From positions 297-64,296 of the forward strand of contig JAPYTP010000008.1 of assembly GCA_029941885.1 (NCBI GenBank): DNA of 64,000 nt, given 5' to 3'. Numbering within the stretch: position 1 is the first letter of the stretch; every line of letters begins with the position of its first letter. The stretch is from Myxococcota bacterium. Its GTDB lineage: Bacteria > Myxococcota_A > UBA9160 > UBA4427. Shown piece by piece: positions 1,355 to 39,818 of this stretch. The notes below the pieces were generated by a model, which saw only the letters and a program-made list of their open reading frames with translations, was not told where the DNA came from and did not search any database. The position numbers were made by a program, and so were the translations under genes.

Positions 1355-2011
1355 ATGCACGCGGACCCGGACAAGACAGAGACCGTTGCCGATCGGCAGG
1401 AGACATTGGACTTCGGGCCGCCACGACCCCTGGTTCGCGAGCCTCGTTCGGGCGAGCGCAGGAGGGTGCAAGAAGTGCTCGGACGCGCATTCTTCGATGA
1501 CCCGGTGTCGATGTTTCTGTTTCCGGACGAACGCAGGAGAGAGACTGGCTTCGCCGCCTTCACCGGACTCGCCATCGACGCCTTCGGCGCGGATGCACTC
1601 GTATTGACGAATGAGGCCGTGCAAGGGGCTGCGATCTGGCAGCGACCCTCGCCTGGACGGCCAGGATGGTCGAAACAGCTCCGAATGGGCGTGCGGATGC
1701 TGTGGGTCATTCGAGGCGGGTTCCGAAAGGCGATCGGACTTGGTGAGTTCATGAACGAACATCATCTGCAGGAACCACACTACTACCTCGCGGCCCTCGG
1801 AACGGATCCCGCTTTCCAGGGATCGGGAATCGGATCCGCATTGATCCAGCCCGTCCTCGAGTGTTGCGATACGGAGCGCAAACCCGCCTATCTCGAATCT
1901 TCGAAGCGGAGCAATATCCCCTTCTACAACAAACACGGATTCGAAGTCATCGAGGAGCTACAGATTCCAGGCGGTCCGAGCATCTGGCCGATGATTCGGC
2001 GAACCGGCTAG
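1355..2011 (+). CDS. GNAT family N-acetyltransferase
   Basis: HYYLAALGTDPAFQGSGIGSAL (motif A), PAYLES, NIPFYNKHGF. Confidence 0.9.
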   Translation: MHADPDKTETVADRQETLDFGPPRPLVREPRSGERRRVQEVLGRAFFDDPVSMFLFPDERRRETGFAAFTGLAIDAFGADALVLTNEAVQGAAIWQRPSPGRPGWSKQLRMGVRMLWVIRGGFRKAIGLGEFMNEHHLQEPHYYLAALGTDPAFQGSGIGSALIQPVLECCDTERKPAYLESSKRSNIPFYNKHGFEVIEELQIPGGPSIWPMIRRTG

Positions 2012-2826
2012 CCCGTTACGCGGTGGCGCTCGAAGGACCAAGCTCCGCTCGCCTCTTCGATATGCCGGACGGAGTTCGCGCGACCGAAGCGCGCGGAGAT
2101 CCGGGCCTGGGGCACGAAGGGGGGGCCGACCGCAGGCGCCTTCAGATCCCCAGCGAATCGCGAGAGCAGCAACTCATCGATCCATTCGCCCTCGACCCGA
2201 TCGACCCGGTCGTTCCCCGAACTGGAGGTGGCAGGCGTGGGGTAGAGCGTCCTCGAAACGGTCGGCCCCGCCTCGACCAGGACGGTGCGGGCGCCGAGGA
2301 GCTCGCGGGCACGGGCGATTGCGCGGAGGACACTCGCGCGCAGCGGCTCGCCCGGTTCTTCCGGCCCCTCGATCGAGAGGCGGGCCACGTTCTGCCCGCC
2401 CAGGCGCACGCGACCGGCTGGCGTCGTCCAGACGAGCCCCGCTCGCGCCGCTACGAGCGCCGGGTGTTCGATCGGGAAGTCCCCGCTCTCGGACAACACC
2501 ACCACGCCGGGAGAAGCGTGCTTGCCGAGCACCCGCTCGCGCCATCGCGCGAGCGCGACCTGCCCCTCTTCGTCCTCGGCATAGCGATGGACGAGTTCTG
2601 GCTCGGCGCGCAAGATCGCGCCGGTCGTCACGATCGCATCCGCCCGCGCACGTGCGAGCCCGAGAACGAAACGGTCTGTCGGGCTCGTCGGCGCGCTCGA
2701 GCCGATCGCAATCGCACAGGCCGGGCTCCCCGCGATCGCCGCGACGTGCAGGAGCCCCGTCGCGGACCGCCAATCGACCACCCCGTAGAGGGTCTCGATC
2801 CGTTCGGAGAGTGCCGAAGTCTGCAT
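2008..2826 (-). CDS. RibD C-terminal / dihydrofolate-reductase-like reductase
   Basis: DRFVLGLARARADAIVTTGAILRAEP, VLVEAGPT, IDELLLS. Confidence 0.8.
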   Translation of the reverse strand: MQTSALSERIETLYGVVDWRSATGLLHVAAIAGSPACAIAIGSSAPTSPTDRFVLGLARARADAIVTTGAILRAEPELVHRYAEDEEGQVALARWRERVLGKHASPGVVVLSESGDFPIEHPALVAARAGLVWTTPAGRVRLGGQNVARLSIEGPEEPGEPLRASVLRAIARARELLGARTVLVEAGPTVSRTLYPTPATSSSGNDRVDRVEGEWIDELLLSRFAGDLKAPAVGPPFVPQARISARFGRANSVRHIEEASGAWSFERHRVTG

Positions 2827-30782: not shown

Positions 30783-31799
30783 ATGGATCCCGAAACCACA
30801 CTCGAGGCTGCGCGAGAGCGCATCGCAGAGTGTGAGGACTCGGCCGCGCTGAAGGACCTCGAGCGGGAGTACGTCGGCAAGAAAGGCGTCGTCGCCGGCA
30901 TGCTCTCGGAGATTCCCAAGCTCGCCGCGGAGGCCCGAAAGGAGCACGGTCAGAAGGCGAATATCCTCAAACGATCGATTCTCGAAGCGATCGCCGCGCG
31001 TCAATCCGAATTCGACGCGTCCGTACTCGATGCCGCGCGCAAAGCGGATGATTTCGATCCGACCCTGCCACCCCCGATCGCAACGCGAGGCAGCCTGCAC
31101 CCGATCACCCAGGTCACCCGCGAACTCGAAGACCTCTTCGTCTCGATGGGCTATGAGGTCCTCGACGGTCCCGAGGTCGAACTCGACCACTACAACTTCG
31201 AAGCGCTGAACATCACCAAGGATCACCCGGCCCGCGATTCGCAGGACACTTTCTACTGCGACGAAGTCGGTCGACTCGTGCTTCGCACCCACACTTCCCC
31301 CGTCCAGGTGCGCGCGATGGAGAAGCGCAAACCGCCCTTTCGCGTCATCGCCCCCGGTCGCGTCTTCCGGCAGGAGACGACGGACGCGAGTCACGACCAC
31401 ACCTTCTATCAGATGGAGGGACTCGTCGTCGGCAAGGACATCTCCGTCGCGCATCTGATCGGTGCCATGAAGACCCTGCTGCGCGGAATTTTCGGACGCG
31501 ATCTCGACGTTCGGCTGCGGCCCGGGCATTTCCCCTTCGTCGAGCCCGGCTTCGAACTCGATGCGCGCTGTCCATTCTGCCAGGATGGTTGCAGCGTCTG
31601 CAAGAAGACCACGTGGATCGAGCTTCTGCCCTGCGGCCTGATCCATCCGAACGTGCTCGTGGCGGGCGGGATCGATCCCGAGGAATGGAGCGGCTTCGCT
31701 TTCGGCCTCGGGCTCTCTCGCCTCGTCATGCTCCGACATAACATCGATGATGTTCGTTGTCTACTGGACGGCGACATCCGCTTCCTGGAGCAGTTCTGA
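30783..31799 (+). CDS. pheS: phenylalanine--tRNA ligase alpha subunit
   Basis: GSLHP, NFEALN..DHPARD, LRTHTS, FYQMEG, FPFVEP, GFAFGLG. Confidence 0.97.
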   Translation: MDPETTLEAARERIAECEDSAALKDLEREYVGKKGVVAGMLSEIPKLAAEARKEHGQKANILKRSILEAIAARQSEFDASVLDAARKADDFDPTLPPPIATRGSLHPITQVTRELEDLFVSMGYEVLDGPEVELDHYNFEALNITKDHPARDSQDTFYCDEVGRLVLRTHTSPVQVRAMEKRKPPFRVIAPGRVFRQETTDASHDHTFYQMEGLVVGKDISVAHLIGAMKTLLRGIFGRDLDVRLRPGHFPFVEPGFELDARCPFCQDGCSVCKKTTWIELLPCGLIHPNVLVAGGIDPEEWSGFAFGLGLSRLVMLRHNIDDVRCLLDGDIRFLEQF

Positions 31800-34258
31800 T
31801 GTTCGTCTCCGTGCGCTGGCTTGCGCGTCACGTCGATCTCGAGGGCATCAGCCCCGAACAACTGGCGAACGACCTCACCCTCTCGACCGCAGAGGTCGAA
31901 GGACTCGAGCGCTTCGCTCCCCCCCTGCACGACGTCGTGGTGGGCCACGTCGTCGCGCGCGATCCCCACCCGGATGCCGAAAAGCTCTCACTCTGCTCCG
32001 TCGACATCGGGCCCGCGGGAGACGGCGAGCCACTTCCGATCGTGTGCGGTGCACCGAACGTAGCCGCCGGCCAGAGGGTGGCCGTCGCGACCGTCGGAAC
32101 GACGCTCCCCGGTGATTTCAAGATCAAGAAATCGAAGATCCGCGGTGTCGCCTCCCTCGGGATGATCTGTTCGGTCCGCGAACTCGATCTCGGCGACGAG
32201 CACGACGGAATCTGGGTGCTTCCCGAAGACGCTCCGGTCGGGTCGCCGGTCGCCGAAGCCCTGGGAATCGACGACTGGATCATCGAGATCGACAACAAAT
32301 CCCTCACCCACCGCCCCGATCTCTGGGGTCATCGGGGCGTCGCCCGCGAAATCGCTGCGATCTATGGGCGGACCCTGCGCCCGCTCGAGACCTCCCTTCC
32401 GAAGACCGGCGATGCCGCGCCCTACCCGATCGCAATCGAGACCGAAGGCTGCTCGCGTTATATCGGACTCCCGATCGACGGCGTGACGCCCGGCCCCTCA
32501 CCCGACTGGCTTCGTTGGCTCCTATTGGCGGTCGGCCAGCGTCCCATCGAACTGCTCGTAGACCTCTCGAATTTCGTGATGATGGATCTCGGCCAGCCGA
32601 ACCACGTGTTCGACCGCAACCGCCTGGAAGCGGATGGCGAGGGTCGCGGGATCGTCGTGCGCGACGCGGCCGAGGGAGAGACGATCGAGACGCTCGACGG
32701 TGAGAAACGCAACCTCACCGAAAGCGACCTGCTCATCTGCGCCGGCGAAACCGCCGTCGCTCTCGCCGGCATCATGGGGGGAGAGGGATCGAAGGTCGCT
32801 GGCGACACCGACTCGCTCTTGCTGGAGGTCGCGACCTTCGACGCCACGACCATTCGCCGTACCTCGACCCGCGTCGGCTTGCGGACGGAATCCTCCGCGC
32901 GTTTCGAGAAGACGCTGGATCCCAATCTGCCACTCGAGGCCGCGGGCCATTTCGCACGTCTGCTCGTCGGCGCCCGTCCGGAGGCTCGTTTCCCCTCACC
33001 CCCTTCGGATATCGGATCCTGGAGCGATCCGGCCCGAACCATCCCGTTGCGCAGCGCACGTGTCCGCACCGCCCTCGGCAAGCCGATCCCCGACGACGAG
33101 ATCCGCGACATTCTGGAGCGCCTCGAGTTTCGCATCGAGGGCGACCCCGCCGGCAACATCGATCTCTATGACGTCTACGTCCCGAGTTTCCGCGCGACCA
33201 AGGACATCACGATCGAGCAGGATCTCGTCGAGGAGATCGGACGGATCCATCGCTACGGAAACATCGAGGAAAAGCCTCTCCACTTCGACATCGTCCCGCC
33301 CCCGCGCGACGAGCGGCGCGCACTGGTCCGCCAGCTCCAGGATCGCCTCGCCGGCGGCGCCCGCTTCCACGAGAGTCTGTCCTATTCGTTCATCGAGGAC
33401 GGACTCCTCGAAAAGCTTGGCGAACTCGAGCTGCCGCATGTGTCCGTGATCAACCCCGTCAATCGCGCCGAATCGAAGATCCGTCGGCGCGTGGCACCGA
33501 GCCTGCTGCTCGCGCTCGAGGCCAATCGGCGCAATCGCGCGGACGTCCGGCTCTTCGAGATCGGAAAGGCCTACGAGCCGGAGAACGGCAACGAACGGGG
33601 TGAACCGCGCGAGCGACACCTGCTCGCCCTGGCATGGGCGGGAACGCGACCCGGCAAGAAGGCGTCCTTCGATGAGAACCGATTGATGGGATTGCAGGCG
33701 ATCGTGAACGACCTCGTTCGCGCACGCGGATGCGGAGAGGCGAAATGGTCGAGAGAAGGAGCGCGACCCGCATGGGCCCATCCCGGAAAATGTCTATTCC
33801 TTTCGCTCGAAGGGGCCAGCGGACCCGTCGCCGTCGTGGCCGAACTCGAGCCTGCCCTGGCCCCTGCGATCGGACTCTCTGGGGATCTCGATAGCGAGAT
33901 CGCGATCGGCGAGATCTGTCTCGACGCGTTGCTGTCGGCAAGTCTCACCGGTGCCGGTTACAAGCCGCTCCCGAAGTTCCCGGGAATCAAGGTGGATGTG
34001 GCCGTCTCGGTCCCCGAAGCGACGACCGCCGCCGACTTGATCGAATTGATCGAGAAGGCCGGCAAGAAGCAGGTCGCCGGGACCGAACTCTTCGACCTCT
34101 ATCGGGGCCAGTCGATCGGCAAGGGAAAGAAATCCCTCGCCTTCCACGTGCTGCTGCAGTCGGAGGCGAAGACCCTGACCGACAAGGACGAGCAGAAATT
34201 TCTCAAGCGATTCGAGAAGCTGGTGGGTGAATCCGGAGGCGAGCTGAGGAAGGGCTGA
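31799..34258 (+). CDS. pheT: phenylalanine--tRNA ligase beta subunit
   Basis: HPDAEKL, CGAPN, KIRGV.S.GMICS, HRPDL, DLVEEIGRIHRY, FDLYRG; TGATG coupling to pheS. Confidence 0.97.
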   Translation: MFVSVRWLARHVDLEGISPEQLANDLTLSTAEVEGLERFAPPLHDVVVGHVVARDPHPDAEKLSLCSVDIGPAGDGEPLPIVCGAPNVAAGQRVAVATVGTTLPGDFKIKKSKIRGVASLGMICSVRELDLGDEHDGIWVLPEDAPVGSPVAEALGIDDWIIEIDNKSLTHRPDLWGHRGVAREIAAIYGRTLRPLETSLPKTGDAAPYPIAIETEGCSRYIGLPIDGVTPGPSPDWLRWLLLAVGQRPIELLVDLSNFVMMDLGQPNHVFDRNRLEADGEGRGIVVRDAAEGETIETLDGEKRNLTESDLLICAGETAVALAGIMGGEGSKVAGDTDSLLLEVATFDATTIRRTSTRVGLRTESSARFEKTLDPNLPLEAAGHFARLLVGARPEARFPSPPSDIGSWSDPARTIPLRSARVRTALGKPIPDDEIRDILERLEFRIEGDPAGNIDLYDVYVPSFRATKDITIEQDLVEEIGRIHRYGNIEEKPLHFDIVPPPRDERRALVRQLQDRLAGGARFHESLSYSFIEDGLLEKLGELELPHVSVINPVNRAESKIRRRVAPSLLLALEANRRNRADVRLFEIGKAYEPENGNERGEPRERHLLALAWAGTRPGKKASFDENRLMGLQAIVNDLVRARGCGEAKWSREGARPAWAHPGKCLFLSLEGASGPVAVVAELEPALAPAIGLSGDLDSEIAIGEICLDALLSASLTGAGYKPLPKFPGIKVDVAVSVPEATTAADLIELIEKAGKKQVAGTELFDLYRGQSIGKGKKSLAFHVLLQSEAKTLTDKDEQKFLKRFEKLVGESGGELRKG

Positions 34259-34278
34259 GGCCTCTACGCCGCCCTCCC

Positions 34279-34794
34279 CTACGCCGCCCGCATCCGTGCC
34301 CGGTAGTGCTTGTTCTTCACCGCGAAATCGGCGACGTGCGAGGCACACCAGGCGTTGGGCTTCACCAGCACGGGGAATCCCGACCCCGCCACCATCCCCG
34401 CGAGCTGCTTCACATAATCACTCGAGTCGTAGCGTTCATCCGGGTTCGCATCGACGTGTACCCAGATCTGTTTCTTGTCGGCGGCGAGCGCGAATGCCTC
34501 GTGCATCCGGATGGCGAGATCGAGTGAGAGCCAGGTCTCGGTCGATAGCTTTTCGTAGAGAGAAACGTCCTTCCGGTCGTAGCGGCGCGTATAGAAGACG
34601 CGGCCTCCCTTTCCCGGATTCAAGACGGCGGCGACGGTCACGAATTCCATCCGGGTCGACGACTTCTGGGCGTCCGTGCCGATGTGTACGACCTGTCCCT
34701 TTCGGATGAGCGATTGCACCGTCCCCATCACATCCAGGACCTCGGCCCCGCTGAGCGTCCACCACCGGCTCTCCGGCTCTACGTTCCCTCGCAT
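34279..34794 (-). CDS. ribonuclease H-like YkuK (DUF458) family protein
   Basis: VHIGTDAQ, GKGGRVFY, ETWLS, VHVDAN, KPNAWCASHVAD. Confidence 0.85.
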   Translation of the reverse strand: MRGNVEPESRWWTLSGAEVLDVMGTVQSLIRKGQVVHIGTDAQKSSTRMEFVTVAAVLNPGKGGRVFYTRRYDRKDVSLYEKLSTETWLSLDLAIRMHEAFALAADKKQIWVHVDANPDERYDSSDYVKQLAGMVAGSGFPVLVKPNAWCASHVADFAVKNKHYRARMRAA

Positions 34795-34921
34795 CGTGTC
34801 TCCCGTCTCGCCGGTCTCCGTTGCGCTGGCTGGCTGCAGCGTGACACCGGTCCGTTTCACTTCCGAATCGCAATCCCTCTCGAATCCTGCTGCTTGGATC
34901 GCCAAGCTCGGCGAACGGTCC

Positions 34922-34959
34922 AAAACGACGAAACCCCCGCGCGGCTGCGCAGGGGTTTC
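34922..34959 (-). terminator. intrinsic terminator/attenuator hairpin upstream of the YkuK-like gene
   Basis: GAAACCCCUGCGC-AGCC-GCGCGGGGGUUUC followed by GUCGUUUU on the minus strand. Confidence 0.75.
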
Positions 34960-35128
34960 AATCGTGAATTCGTTTGTCTCTTCTCGATCGCCGTCTCGAG
35001 ACCCGCTCCCGGCGTACAGCGAGTGAAGCCGGCCTCACCGCCGACCCGCCGGAACCCCGGTCCGATCGCTCGGCGGCGATCGGCACCGTGCCTGTCCCTC
35101 GGCTTCGGCTTCGCGCGGACCCGGCCAT
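34958..35128 (-). CDS. putative 56-aa Arg/Ser-rich leader peptide
   Basis: GGAGGA RBS 7 nt before ATG; MAGSARSRSRG...RRERVSRRRSRRDKRIHD; TGA overlaps the terminator stem. Confidence 0.45.
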   Translation of the reverse strand: MAGSARSRSRGTGTVPIAAERSDRGSGGSAVRPASLAVRRERVSRRRSRRDKRIHD

Positions 35129-35257
35129 CAATCGATCCTCCGTCGGGCAAATCTATATTGCCCATCGACCAAACCGCCTTCGCGGTCAACATTCAATCCC
35201 TTGATACCCCCCCACACACTGTCGCGTCAACCCCACACCCGGGCACGGGCAGCACCC

Positions 35258-35299
35258 CAAAACAACAAGGCCCCCGCGAAGTCGATGCTTCGCGGGGGC
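35258..35299 (-). terminator. intrinsic terminator of the MaoC-like gene
   Basis: GCCCCCGCGAAG/CTTCGCGGGGGC 12-bp stem followed by CTTGTTGTTTT on the minus strand. Confidence 0.8.
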
Positions 35300-35412
35300 T
35301 CTTCTCGATTCGATGCCACCCCTGCCGCGGGGCGCTGGTCATGCCCGCTGGCTCGCGGGAGGAATCGGCGCCACGGCGGCATTGCCCTGCCGCCCGGCGA
35401 TGTGACCCGGCT

Positions 35413-36249
35413 CTATGAAAAGGTGCAGACCCCCTGATCCAGAACGACATCGCCGTTCTGGTTCTTGGTCTGGAAGAGCGCCTTCCCACCGTCGACCCAC
35501 ATCGCGACCGTCAGCGCATCCCCCGGCATGACGGGCTTCGAGAAGCGGCCATCGATGCTCTTGAAACGGCTCGGATCGCCATCACAGAGACTGTGGAGCA
35601 GTGCACGTCCGGTGAATCCGTAGGTGCACAGACCGTGAAGAATCGGTCGATCGAAGCCGCCGATCGCCGCAAAGGATGGATCGGAATGGAGCGGGTTGCG
35701 ATCTCCTGACAGCCGATAGGTCAGCGCCTGATCTTCACGAGTCACGTACGTCACTTCGTGATCGGCCTTGCGGTCCGGGATCTCGAACGTCGGCGACGGG
35801 CCACGCTCGCCGCCGAAATCACCTGCACCGCGACAGAAGAGCGACATCTTCACCTTGAAGAGCGGCTTGCCCGTCGCAACGAGGGTCGAGGTCGAGGCGA
35901 ACTCGACGACTCCGGCCTTGCCCTTGTCCCAGATCCCCGCAATCTCGCCGACGCTCTCGATCTCGCCTTCCGGGGGGATCTCGTCGTAGAGCTCGATGCC
36001 TTCGGTGCCGTGCACCATGAGCGCGGGATTGAACTCGCCCGCCTTGCTCATCGGGACTCCGCCACCACCGAGGATCACGGCCATGGTCGGGAGCGCGCGC
36101 TGGGGGGTGTCCTTCGTGTTTTCCGTCGTGAACTGGAGCTCGCTCGTACCCGCGCCCACGCCGACTGCGTAGAGGAGCGAGTCCTTCGATGTCCATGATC
36201 GCTTGCTGGGCTCGCCTTTGGCGCCCACGCTGCTCGGATCGAGAGCCAT
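35413..36249 (-). CDS. MaoC/MFE-2-type double-hotdog (R)-enoyl-CoA hydratase
   Basis: LLYAVGVG, YRLSGDRNPLHSDP, PILHGLCTYG, RFSKPV.PG. Confidence 0.93.
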   Translation of the reverse strand: MALDPSSVGAKGEPSKRSWTSKDSLLYAVGVGAGTSELQFTTENTKDTPQRALPTMAVILGGGGVPMSKAGEFNPALMVHGTEGIELYDEIPPEGEIESVGEIAGIWDKGKAGVVEFASTSTLVATGKPLFKVKMSLFCRGAGDFGGERGPSPTFEIPDRKADHEVTYVTREDQALTYRLSGDRNPLHSDPSFAAIGGFDRPILHGLCTYGFTGRALLHSLCDGDPSRFKSIDGRFSKPVMPGDALTVAMWVDGGKALFQTKNQNGDVVLDQGVCTFS

Positions 36250-36275
36250 GATTTGCTTTCCTTTCTTGGATTCCC

Positions 36276-36371
36276 TTGTCCGGGGAATTGTCCGGGGAAT
36301 GGTCCTGGGAATGGTTTTGCGAACTATCCTACGTGCTGTGCTGCGTATTGTCCTGGGTGCTGACCTGCACA
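36276..36371. repeat. degenerate 12-bp tandem array (about 8 units)
   Basis: TTGTCCGGGGAA x2, TGGTCCTGGGAA, TGGTTTTGCGAA, CTATCCTACGTG, CTGTGCTGCGTA, TTGTCCTGGGTG, CTGACCTGCACA. Confidence 0.7.
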
Positions 36372-36554
36372 CGGGCTGCCGGATGCTTCCATCGTGGGGG
36401 CGGTCTGAGCGTTTCCACAGGTCGGAGCTTGCAGCTGCGCGGCAACGACCGTCACCCTCGGCCCGCACGCGGTCACTAGAAATACACTAGGCATTCTTCC
36501 TTGTCGATCGCCCGGATCCAACGGGTTTCGACGAGTTCCACCCTCAGGAACCCC

Positions 36555-39500
36555 ATGACTCCCAGTATCCTCTGTGCCCCCCACGGCGCCTCGACCCTCG
36601 CGTCCGCCCGCGCCCTTGCCTGCTATTGGCGACCGGATCGGCTTGGGCTGCTCGTCCTCGGGTTCGTCGCGGTCCTCGCGATCAGCCTCACGGGCGGAAC
36701 CGCCCAGGCCGCCTGTACGCCGGATCCACCCATGGCTGACGATGCGGTGACCTGTGATGGAACCGACTCGACGGGCTTCGACGGAAGCGGTGCCACGGGC
36801 CTCACGATCACGACCGATGGCGCCGCCGAGCTCGACGAGAGCGATGCCCTCCTCGACAGCGCGATTCTCATCGGCGCCGACAACACCGTCACGATTGGAA
36901 CCGACGCGACGGTCACCGTTACCGAGGCGGACGGATTTGGCGTGCGAGGGGGTGACCGCAATGGGGTGACCAATGATGGGATGATCGTGGTCGACGGCGC
37001 GAATGGTGTCGCGATCGATGTCGGCAGCCTCGACGTTCCCGACCCGGCCCCGGCGATCAATGTCATGAACAATGGAACGATCACATTGAACGGTGCCAAC
37101 AGCGTCGGCCTGCGGAGCGTCGACAACTACAATCTCTCGAACGAAGTGGGCGGCGTGATCACGATCAATGCGAGTGCCACCGGGGGCATCGGCATCCAGG
37201 GGGTGGACGACAACCTCGTCTTCAATCGCGGCACGATCACCGTCGACGCAGCGGATGGTCGCGCGATCTCGATTCGGGACAACACCGGCGTCCCGCTTCC
37301 GAACGGTGCGATCACCGTATCGACGAGCGTGATCGACCTGAACGGCGATCGCAGTATCGCCGTCGAAGTCCGCGACAACGTCGGCGCCGCCGTTGACGGG
37401 ATCATCAACTTCAGCGCCACGCGCCGCCTGACGCGCGGCCTGTCGGCGGGCAACAAGACCGACCCCTTTGCAGCGGCCAACTTCACGAACCAGGGAACGA
37501 TGAACGTCGCGAGCGACGACGCTTTCGGCATGAAGGTCGGGGACGGCTGGATCGACGGCTCCGACGATGGGATGGGCGTGCTCGTCCCCGAGTCCGCCGG
37601 GACGCGCAACGTCGGCACGATCAACGTCACGGGCAGCCGCTCCGTCGGTATCTTCGCGGGCGACGAAGCGAATCTCACGTTCAACCACAACAGCTTCGTC
37701 TCGAATACCGGTACGATCAACGTCACCGGCGTCGATGCGATCGGCATTTCTGCTGGCGGGAACGACGTGTTCGATCCCTTCGATTTCGATGACCTCGACT
37801 CGACCGTGCTCGTCTTTAGCATCCAGCAGAGTGGCACCATCACCGGCGGTGCGGACGCCGGCCCTCTCGTTCTACTCCGGAATTTCTCAGCGGACGGTGA
37901 GAATCGGATCTTCAACACGGCGACCGGTAGTATTCTCGCGGACGTCACGAATCTGGGGATGACCGACCGAGGCATCGCCATCCGCGGCACCGCCGGCCCC
38001 GAGCTCGTCCTCAACTCCGGCACGATCCAGGGTGATATCGAACTGCTCGGCGGCGATGACCGCTACGCGGTCGACTCCACTACGATGATGACCGGTACCG
38101 TATACGGCGGCACGGGAATCGATGAAGCGGTCCTCAACTTCGCGTTCGGGACGGAGCCAGGCAACTTCGATCCCTCGTCGCTCGACGGCTTCGAACGAAT
38201 CCGAATCTACGGCGCGAGCGGAATCGGCGGTTCGCTCAATGGCTGGACGCTGACCAATGGCGGGAGCTTCGCAGGCATCACGGAAATCGCAGGCACCGGT
38301 CGTCTCGTCGTTCCCGAAGGCGTCAACGGCTTCAACGTCCCGGTGACGCTCGGCGGCGATCTCGTCGTCGACCCGATGGGGAGTGTGCTCCTGACGCTGG
38401 ACGGCACGAATACTCCCCTCACGGTGGTTGGCAACGCGACCTTCGACGGCACCCTCATCGTCGAGCGAACCGCCCTGCTGCGCGTGGACGGAGCCTACCG
38501 TCTGATTCAGGTCGACGGCAGCCGAGCAGCCACGATCTTCGCGACTGAAATGCTCCCCGATACGATGGGCGTCTATTCTTTCTCGACGATCTACGACGCC
38601 AACGGCGTGTCGCTCTTGGTCGTTCGCAATTTGACGCTCGCCGCGATCGCCTCGAGCGCGAATCGAAGGGCGATCGCCACGCATCTCGACGACATCTACG
38701 TCGACCCCGCGACGCCGCTCGGGCTCCTTCAAGAGATCGATGATCTCCTGACGGGCACCGGCAACCTCAACAATGTCTTCGATGCCCTGAATCCCGAACC
38801 CTACGATGCACAGACGGCGGTGATCGCCGAGAGCAGCCGACGCATCGCGAATCTGCTGATGAATCGCCCCCGCGATTGCCAGAGGGGTCAGCTCGATCCG
38901 TGGCAGAAGTCGACCGAGCACCTCGCGTGCCACGCGCGACGCTGGTCTCCCTGGCTGGCGACGATTGGCAGCTTTCGCGAGCGGGATGCCAATTCGGGCC
39001 ATACCGAATACGACGCGCAGATCGGCGGTGCGGTATTCGGAATCGACGTTCGACCGATTGGCGATCTCCAGCTCACCCTCGCCATCTCCAGCCAGAAAGG
39101 CACGATCGACGTGCAGGGCTACGGCGAGAGCGATCTCGTCCTGGCGGATATCTCGGGACACGTGGCCTGGAGTCGAGGTCCGCTACGGCTTCAGGGTGTC
39201 GCCTCGTGGGGATACGGCTCCCACATGAGCCGCCGCAGGATCCAGTTCAACGAGGGTTCGACTCCCGTAAACGTCAATGCCGAAGATGATCACGCGAGTC
39301 AGCACGTTGCCGTTTCGGCGCAGGCAGGCTTCCTCATGCACCTGGGACCGATCGACATCGAGCCGCTCGTGGGAGCCGACTACACCTGGATCAGCCAAGA
39401 CGAAATCCGAGAGGGCGACGCGGGGCTCTTCGGAGAGAGTATCGAGCAGCGCGACGACGACCTCGTCTCCGTGACGGGTGGAGTTCGGCTGAGCACCGTC

Positions 39501-39818
39501 TACCACCACACCAAATACCTCCATTCCAGCCTCTTGTGGATGGATGGAATCTGGCGTCCGACGCTCGATCTTCGCTGGCGGCAGACCCTCATGGGCTATG
39601 ACCGAGACCTAACAGCGCGCCTGAACAGCGCACCGAGCAGCGTGTCGAGCTTTACGATCGAAGGGAAGGAAGACGAGGGAGGCTTCGAGATCGGCGCGGG
39701 CATCTCCTTCGTCCCCGAAAACGCCAACCGACTCCAGATCGATCTTGGATACGATGTCTTCCGCTCCGAAAATACTCTCGAACACAACCTCGTCGCAAAG
39801 GTGATCGTAGGCTTCTAG
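36555..39818 (+). CDS. autotransporter (type Va) with beta-helical passenger
   Basis: Long signal peptide ending AQA-ACT; repeated N.GTI.V.G turns; C-terminal ~300-aa barrel (EPLVGADY.W, terminal VIVGF). Confidence 0.88.
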   Translation: MTPSILCAPHGASTLASARALACYWRPDRLGLLVLGFVAVLAISLTGGTAQAACTPDPPMADDAVTCDGTDSTGFDGSGATGLTITTDGAAELDESDALLDSAILIGADNTVTIGTDATVTVTEADGFGVRGGDRNGVTNDGMIVVDGANGVAIDVGSLDVPDPAPAINVMNNGTITLNGANSVGLRSVDNYNLSNEVGGVITINASATGGIGIQGVDDNLVFNRGTITVDAADGRAISIRDNTGVPLPNGAITVSTSVIDLNGDRSIAVEVRDNVGAAVDGIINFSATRRLTRGLSAGNKTDPFAAANFTNQGTMNVASDDAFGMKVGDGWIDGSDDGMGVLVPESAGTRNVGTINVTGSRSVGIFAGDEANLTFNHNSFVSNTGTINVTGVDAIGISAGGNDVFDPFDFDDLDSTVLVFSIQQSGTITGGADAGPLVLLRNFSADGENRIFNTATGSILADVTNLGMTDRGIAIRGTAGPELVLNSGTIQGDIELLGGDDRYAVDSTTMMTGTVYGGTGIDEAVLNFAFGTEPGNFDPSSLDGFERIRIYGASGIGGSLNGWTLTNGGSFAGITEIAGTGRLVVPEGVNGFNVPVTLGGDLVVDPMGSVLLTLDGTNTPLTVVGNATFDGTLIVERTALLRVDGAYRLIQVDGSRAATIFATEMLPDTMGVYSFSTIYDANGVSLLVVRNLTLAAIASSANRRAIATHLDDIYVDPATPLGLLQEIDDLLTGTGNLNNVFDALNPEPYDAQTAVIAESSRRIANLLMNRPRDCQRGQLDPWQKSTEHLACHARRWSPWLATIGSFRERDANSGHTEYDAQIGGAVFGIDVRPIGDLQLTLAISSQKGTIDVQGYGESDLVLADISGHVAWSRGPLRLQGVASWGYGSHMSRRRIQFNEGSTPVNVNAEDDHASQHVAVSAQAGFLMHLGPIDIEPLVGADYTWISQDEIREGDAGLFGESIEQRDDDLVSVTGGVRLSTVYHHTKYLHSSLLWMDGIWRPTLDLRWRQTLMGYDRDLTARLNSAPSSVSSFTIEGKEDEGGFEIGAGISFVPENANRLQIDLGYDVFRSENTLEHNLVAKVIVGF

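Follow-up and report, generated by a model that had tools for sequence, protein, structure and literature searches.

A candidate coupling-type attenuator ahead of a ykuK-like gene in uncultured Myxococcota

A 64,000-nt stretch of DNA (the window) from a Myxococcota bacterium (UBA9160; UBA4427; assembly GCA_029941885.1, contig JAPYTP010000008.1) carries on its minus strand a ykuK-like gene encoding a predicted RNase H-like protein. Comparative sequence analysis, which provides all the evidence on the leader, hairpin and open reading frame (ORF) discussed here, indicates that the gene is preceded by a conserved cis-regulatory leader. Within this leader an ORF with its own Shine-Dalgarno (SD) sequence ends at the foot of a terminator-like hairpin. 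We put the chances at about even that the element is an attenuator of the pyrE/pyrBI type, in which a closely trailing ribosome would block the terminator. A sequence-only reading of this DNA had proposed a stress-induced leader-peptide attenuator; the ORF, terminator and gene that it described were found, but its promoter, antiterminator, arginine sensing and direction of control did not hold up.

The minus strand was read over positions 33900-35500 and its ORFs were listed. The central features are as follows.

34960-34929, minus strand (34960-34920 as a whole): candidate attenuator hairpin with U-rich tail, UCGUUUUGG, identified by RNA folding and covariation
35136-35141, minus strand: SD sequence GGAGGA of the leader ORF, 7 nt before the ATG at 35128
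35128-34958, minus strand: leader ORF, 56 codons and then a TGA overlapping the foot of the hairpin
34794-34279, minus strand: ykuK-like gene (171 amino acids), PF04308 RNase H-like, Pfam E = 7.8e-28

A conserved hairpin upstream of ykuK

Related leaders were sought at both the DNA and the protein level. A 465-nt intergenic query was compared at the DNA level with 41 related genomes, and gave matches in 15 of them including the window's own (13 of 24 within the genus). In 12 of the 13 matched same-genus genomes the sole matching part was positions 294-345 of the query, corresponding to the hairpin, and in the thirteenth, the closest relative, nearly the whole query aligned at 69%. Of 151 genomes of the order, 27 contain PF04308; in the window's family the count is 25 of 34. 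Species-representative genomes were scanned with the protein as guide, which yielded 46 loci, from uncultured Myxococcota or 'Deltaproteobacteria' metagenome-assembled genomes (MAGs), and after removal of duplicates there were 48 distinct ykuK loci. Hairpins upstream of ykuK were sought by a sliding RNAfold scan together with reading of the sequences. A terminator-like hairpin was found 30-200 nt upstream of the gene in 33 of the 48 loci, with L074 added by eye. The 33 hairpin-bearing loci, i.e. the window plus 32 related MAG loci, are the main comparison set.

In the window the hairpin comprises 14 base pairs (nine G-C and one U.G), a loop of 4 nt and the tail TCGTTTTGGA. It had been described from the sequence alone as a 13-bp stem with a U tail; the stem and tail are present, but the stem has 14 pairs. 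The overlap with the ORF noted at the same time is correct, the TGA at 34960-34958 forming bases 1-3 of the hairpin. The pattern is single-copy in its own 6.6-Mb assembly. RNAalifold applied to the 33 sequences gave a 12-pair helix, with compensatory changes at 8 of the 12 pairs. Standard pairs occupy 97.2% of the cells of the helix alignment, compared with 38-68% when the register is slid, and none of 500 shuffles reached any of five measures of the helix. The U.G pair is conserved, so that the helix is specific to RNA of the ykuK sense. This covariation marks the hairpin as a genuine element that functions as RNA, and we infer that it terminates transcription. Neighboring genera have a different stem sequence but the same design of hairpin and U-tract, for example AAAAACCCCGG...CCGGGGUUUUUUU. 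An Rfam scan of 33500-36500 gave nine matches at E values up to 10, none of them near its gathering score; the best match on the hairpin was to the rnk_pseudo leader, at 22.8 bits against a gathering score of 55.

Tandem repeats were observed upstream of ykuK at several of the related loci. In a more distant relative (L071, ~1370-1460) a run of GGTGATTGG-type units replaces the hairpin. Tandem GCCGCTCTCCAG-like repeats occur in L034 (~2010-2105, minus strand) and L043, which belong to a neighboring genus that lacks the hairpin and in which ykuK does not adjoin maoC. In L004 (~1540-1580, minus strand) a CACCAA-type microsatellite lies immediately before the hairpin, and the leader ORFs there read TPTPTP or HQHQHQ.

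The leader ORF ends at the foot of the hairpin

The GGAGGA ribosome-binding site (35141-35136) and the 56-codon ORF are both where the sequence-only reading had placed them, although the ORF contains 15 arginine codons and not 14. One rule was applied at all 33 loci. A qualifying ORF had an SD core 5-17 nt before an ATG, GTG or TTG and at least 25 codons, and its stop was taken to be at the foot if it fell within −20 to +2 nt of the stem core of the hairpin. By this rule the ORF stops at the foot in 20 of the 33 loci, and in a further 10 it passes through the hairpin. Dinucleotide-preserving shuffles of the leaders lead to an expectation of 3.65 ORFs at the foot and 13.9 reaching the hairpin, and a stricter shuffle that retains all the stops near the foot gives 4.67 and 14.4 respectively. 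The 10 ORFs that run through the hairpin compare with ~10 expected. With the set reduced to 22 clade representatives there are 12 ORFs ending at the foot, where 3.14 are expected. The real leaders were also tiled in 23-nt windows. Stops of such ORFs fall at the foot in 20 loci, compared with 0-6 loci for any other 23-nt window. Stop triplets of any frame accumulate in the 20 nt before the stem.

The blocks comprising the SD sequence and start codon are homologous and are kept within each clade, and changes in length between start and hairpin preserve the reading frame. In one clade the distances from start codon to hairpin are 158, 158, 179, 179, 191, 191 and 179 nt, all of which are 2 modulo 3, and two other clades differ by 21 and 48 nucleotides of ORF, again multiples of three. 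The distances from promoter to start codon and from hairpin to ykuK vary across all residue classes modulo 3. In seven loci the TGA of the stem is replaced by CGA. As judged by eye, four of these have another TGA no more than 17 nt upstream, and the other three read through. Most of the read-through ORFs end near the start of ykuK, at +13 for L002, −5 for L035, −6 for L055 and −14 for both L018 and L037. In L076 (~1280-1495) and L077 (~1290-1495) an SD-led ORF of 100-114 codons extends across the hairpin to a TGA that overlaps the ATG of ykuK as ATGA (read by eye); the arrangement suggests translational coupling in that lineage.

The leader ORF is probably translated, but is indifferent to the sequence of its peptide. 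Among close relatives the ORF has diverged as fast as its flanks, and between clades the peptides are unalignable, as in neutral evolution. A Pfam search with the 57- and 111-amino acid leader ORFs found no family. The possibility that the leader ORF encodes a genuine small basic protein was considered and rejected, given peptides that do not align between clades and have no coding bias. The frame of the ORF is conserved, but its peptide is not.

Absence of a coding signature and the possibility of an incidental ORF

A number of observations weigh against control through translation of the leader. There is no excess of substitutions at third positions; between L003 and L006 the changes at the three codon positions number 11, 16 and 19 of 40, and between L014 and L021 they number 23, 15 and 20 of 57. 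The G+C content by codon position is 0.65, 0.68 and 0.71 in the leader ORFs, as against 0.62, 0.43 and 0.83 in ykuK. In the absence of a coding signature the case for translation therefore depends only on the conservation of the SD and start, the maintenance of frame and the position of the stop. The leader is rich in G+C and in purines, and in ~40% of shuffles an ORF reaches the hairpin. Kinship of the loci inflates the P values of the shuffles, and we have relied on the ratios instead. Three of the 33 loci (L051, L019 and L023) have no qualifying ORF, and among the 48 loci 13 more distant ones lack the hairpin and one further locus is cut off. The TGA at the foot contributes bases to the stem as well, so the structure may be the reason for its retention. 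Lastly, the U-tract is interrupted (UUUCGUCGUUUU) and part of it can pair with an upstream ACGA, lengthening the stem, so that the strength of the terminator is uncertain.

Several of these points would suit an element that is not regulated at all. The leader would then give rise to a short non-coding transcript (a small RNA (sRNA) derived from the 5′ untranslated region), or the hairpin would be a leaky terminator that keeps ykuK low, and the ORF would be incidental. Such a reading agrees with the unconstrained peptide, with a leader body (the leader is ~270 nt in all) that is conserved in neither sequence nor length, with its stable predicted fold (−138 kcal/mol, z = −3.8), with the frequency at which shuffled ORFs reach the hairpin, and with the failure to reach the gathering score of any Rfam family. 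Yet it leaves unexplained the number of SD-led ORFs that end at the foot, four to five times that expected, the frame-preserving changes in length found inside the ORF only, and the conservation of SD and start blocks within clades. Moreover, an sRNA whose body is conserved only at the terminator has no conserved target site. We consider an unregulated element unlikely, while giving it more weight than the other alternatives discussed below.

The proposed stalling at arginine codons and the proposed antiterminator

In the sequence-only reading the leader was a classical stalling attenuator. A ribosome stalled in the arginine-rich leader, as a result of arginine starvation or a translation inhibitor, would free a segment for pairing with the 5′ arm of the terminator, and stress would thereby induce ykuK. 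The leader ORF and the terminator that this requires both exist. The ORF of the window has its 15 arginine codons among 56, with a run near the end, and the GGGGUU proposed as the antiterminator segment is indeed present (GGGGTT at 35058-35053) and complementary to AACCCC. The rare arginine codons CGA, AGA and AGG together make up 55% of the arginine codons of leader ORFs, compared with 21% in ykuK.

The pairing does not stand out in comparison with shuffled sequences. The 5′ arm was tested against the leader using RNAduplex with 100 shuffles per locus, and the mean z over the 33 loci was +0.12. In the window the best site is not GGGGTT but lies elsewhere, 214 nt upstream of the core, and the best complements of the 5′ arm fall at non-homologous places among the loci. 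With duplexes no stronger than those of shuffled leaders and not homologous, an antiterminator of the trp type is therefore unsupported. Nor does arginine appear to act as a sensor. Its share of the codons is 22% in frame, and in the two alternative frames 19% and 18%, and this near-equality indicates that the richness in arginine results from base composition. The choice of arginine codons is likewise compositional, since the ORF has no codon bias. In addition, stalling of a ribosome 12-50 nt ahead of the hairpin would leave too little RNA for an alternative helix. Taken together we regard a stalling attenuator as very improbable.

The promoter and the start of the leader

An alignment of 13 same-genus spacers contains three conserved blocks, namely the terminator of maoC, a promoter-like block, and the hairpin with its tail. 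The features at the beginning of the leader are the following.

35230-35225 (−35 element TTGACG) and 35206-35201 (−10-like TATCAA), minus strand: σ70-like promoter, identified by conservation
35163-35189, minus strand: motif CTYGA-N17-CGAWG, just downstream of the probable start of transcription

The sequence GGGGTTGAC is invariant in all 13 of the same-genus loci, and a −10-like hexamer follows it after 16-19 nt. In the wider set TTGAC was found by eye upstream of the leader in 32 of the 33 hairpin-bearing loci, followed in most by a spacer of 16-19 nt and an nAnnAT-like hexamer. A scan of the region with the σ70 consensus returned no promoter sites; it missed this one because the −10 lacks the final T. 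Transcription would start near 35194. The sequence-only reading had placed the −10 at TAGATT (35155-35150), within the palindrome GGGCAA (35163-35158)-N7-TTGCCC (35150-35145). Both are present in the window, but neither is conserved in the 13-locus alignment, and the conserved promoter is ~50-75 nt further upstream of TAGATT. On the sense strand the leader is rich in G over C, with a GC skew of ~0.14-0.29.

The spacing of the CTYGA-N17-CGAWG motif is fixed among 23 aligned same-genus loci, with a variable interior and a near-invariant C.CGA. RNAalifold predicted no shared structure for it in the 23 same-genus leaders. The motif may be bound by a protein or may act as a second promoter element.

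An alternative reading is that the hairpin is itself a binding or processing element, serving autoregulation by YkuK, an RNA-binding antiterminator protein, RNase III cleavage or RNA stability, with the motif as a second protein site. Within the genus the stem is near-invariant, including the U.G pair and the tail UUUCGUCGUU, the motif has its fixed spacing without RNA structure, and the downstream gene encodes a predicted nuclease. However, neighboring genera change the stem fully and keep a hairpin and U-tract (AAAAACCCCGG/CCGGGGUUUUU, for example), and conservation of a stem irrespective of its sequence fits a generic terminator better. Given a distance to the ykuK start that varies from ~30 to 200 nt, the hairpin is not a translational operator, and no candidate regulator gene is linked, the neighbors being maoC and pheT. 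A protein site seems to us improbable, although less so than stalling.

Probable dependence of ykuK on read-through

Between the hairpin and the gene lies one further feature.

34795-34919, minus strand: unconserved spacer, ending in the ykuK SD sequence GGGAGA (34804-34799)

The ATG of ykuK at 34794 is 134 nt after the hairpin, in agreement with the ~130 nt given in the sequence-only reading. Among relatives the spacer can be aligned over its last ~15 nt only, i.e. the ribosome-binding site. In L003, L006 and L057 the distance from hairpin to ATG is 28-44 nt, which is too short for a separate promoter, and the sole conserved promoter-like block lies upstream of the leader. Expression of ykuK thus probably depends on transcription from the upstream promoter past the hairpin. 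The 134-nt spacer of the window may contain a start site of its own.

A model for coupled attenuation

The arrangement suggests the following scheme. Transcription would begin at the conserved promoter, near 35194, and a ribosome would load at the GGAGGA and ATG (35141 and 35128). A closely trailing ribosome would be at the last codons or at the TGA (34960-34958) by the time the polymerase arrives at the U-rich tract ~40 nt downstream. The ribosome would then cover the 5′ arm of the hairpin, so that the terminator remains unfolded and the polymerase enters ykuK. If the leader ORF is not translated, or the ribosome lags, the hairpin would fold and transcription would end at ~34920. In those relatives where the ORF continues through the hairpin to the start of ykuK the outcome should be the same, possibly with translational coupling in addition. 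The footprint of a ribosome extends ~10-15 nt beyond its A site in the downstream direction. For one on the last codons this corresponds to the 5′ arm, so the hairpin should be unable to close at the U-tract. A stop at the foot, or an ORF through the hairpin, combined with the lack of an alternative pairing leads to the idea that coupled translation suppresses termination. We predict that ykuK is read through if translation keeps pace or the polymerase is slowed, and that transcription terminates if translation of the leader fails or lags.

There is a precedent for the effect of stop codon position at the E. coli terminator tR2. Moving the stop from 28 bp before the terminator to 5 bp before it reduced termination from ~90% to <10%, and the effect depended on translation, being abolished without it (PMC4824070). 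The geometry of the leader and this precedent together imply that translation stress would lower the expression of ykuK, rather than induce it as in the sequence-only reading.

A more specific possibility is that the leader senses how closely ribosome and polymerase are spaced. Expression of the gene would then be confined to conditions that slow the polymerase relative to the ribosome, such as a shortage of nucleotides on the G-rich leader or obstacles on the template, and YkuK would act on RNA:DNA hybrids or stalled complexes. While this is speculative, and we think it has a rather small chance of being correct, it would connect an orphan nuclease family with the monitoring of transcription-translation coupling.

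The YkuK protein

The match of the protein to PF04308 scores 97.7 bits, where the cut-off is 25, and spans profile positions 9-141 of 145. Over 23 aligned orthologs the mean column identity is 78%, and D41, E86, D115 and D156 are invariant; we infer that these four residues are catalytic. An AlphaFold2 model has a mean pLDDT of 80 and a pTM of 0.80. The top Foldseek hits to it are to RNase H1, the best being 4e19_B, although that match is weak (E = 2.8e-4, TM = 0.37/0.44). A sequence search of the Protein Data Bank (PDB) with YkuK gave no match. The similarity to YkuK/DUF458/COG1978 (PF04308; B. subtilis YkuK) is thus indicated by a Pfam score far above the cut-off and by the RNase H1 folds at the head of the Foldseek list. 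To our knowledge no biochemical function is known for any member of this widespread family. The family has been predicted to be RNase H-like, and a published classification places it in that superfamily, in a clade with RNase H1 (PMC3985635).

In a full-text literature search no leader or attenuator came to light for YkuK, DUF458 or PF04308, and the terms were in no title or abstract among the matches listed. An attenuator before ykuK would be the first hint of when a YkuK/DUF458 gene is expressed, and provides a regulatory element that can be tested. It would also be a clear natural example of selection on the frame and stop position of a leader ORF and not on its peptide, and could serve as a benchmark for regulatory upstream ORFs in G+C-rich genomes, where the length of an ORF by itself says little.

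Organization of the locus

On the minus strand a gene for a MaoC-like dehydratase (Pfam PF01575 and PF22622) and its terminator are followed by a 475-nt non-coding stretch and then by ykuK. The terminator had been noted in the sequence-only reading, and was found at this position.

35299-35270, minus strand, with a tail to ~35260: intrinsic terminator of the MaoC-like gene, with 12 pairs, 10 of them G-C, and a T-rich tail

Its structure is kept despite changes of sequence in most of the 13 aligned loci, and it is absent in the clade of L007, L008 and L014. The gene order maoC, spacer, ykuK, pheT is preserved among relatives. The pheT gene (31757-34258) is convergent with ykuK and 20 nt (34259-34278) separate the stop codons; a scan of this interval found no terminator. 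Just upstream of the likely MaoC start (ATG at 36249, minus strand) a 12-nt unit is repeated 3.2 times with 92% matches (36278-36315). It translates as PRTIPRTIPRTI within a long GTG-started ORF (35413-36468). An ORF of 1105 amino acids at 36501-39818 (plus strand) is divergent from maoC.

Comparison with known attenuators

The trp, his and erm-type leaders also place a short leader ORF, here predicted to be translated, and an intrinsic terminator ahead of a gene. They differ from the ykuK leader, which has no conserved antiterminator or anti-antiterminator, no frame-specific regulatory codons and no conserved stalling peptide. The synthetic tR2 series (Li et al. 2015) resembles the ykuK leader in the position of the stop. 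A stop ~5 bp before the hairpin represses termination there in a translation-dependent manner (PMC4824070), and in the window the hairpin has the TGA as its first three bases. The tR2 constructs are engineered E. coli reporters rather than a natural leader, and do not concern regulation of a nuclease.

The greatest similarity is to rph-pyrE and pyrBI of E. coli. Attenuation in both depends on coupling as well as on the proximity of the stop codon to the attenuator (PMC5021804, PMC2784333), and the expression of pyrE is set by how far the rph stop lies from the attenuator loop (PMC2784333). The upstream ORF of rph-pyrE ends just before the terminator hairpin, as in 20 of the 33 loci here, and the pyrL ORF ahead of pyrBI runs through the hairpin, as in 10 of the 33 (PMC2784333, PMC5021804). 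Neither needs an antiterminator helix, and read-through in both requires a ribosome close behind the polymerase. There are also differences. The regulated gene here encodes an RNase H-like protein and not a pyrimidine enzyme, the lineage is one of uncultured Myxococcota, and the leader is G-rich, with no U-rich pause tract seen on reading by eye. The claim in the sequence-only reading of an undescribed system was overstated, for the type of mechanism is known from pyrE and pyrBI; what would be new is an instance before an orphan nuclease gene in an uncultured lineage. If the model is correct it would extend coupling-type attenuation, known mainly from the pyr genes of enterobacteria, to the Myxococcota.

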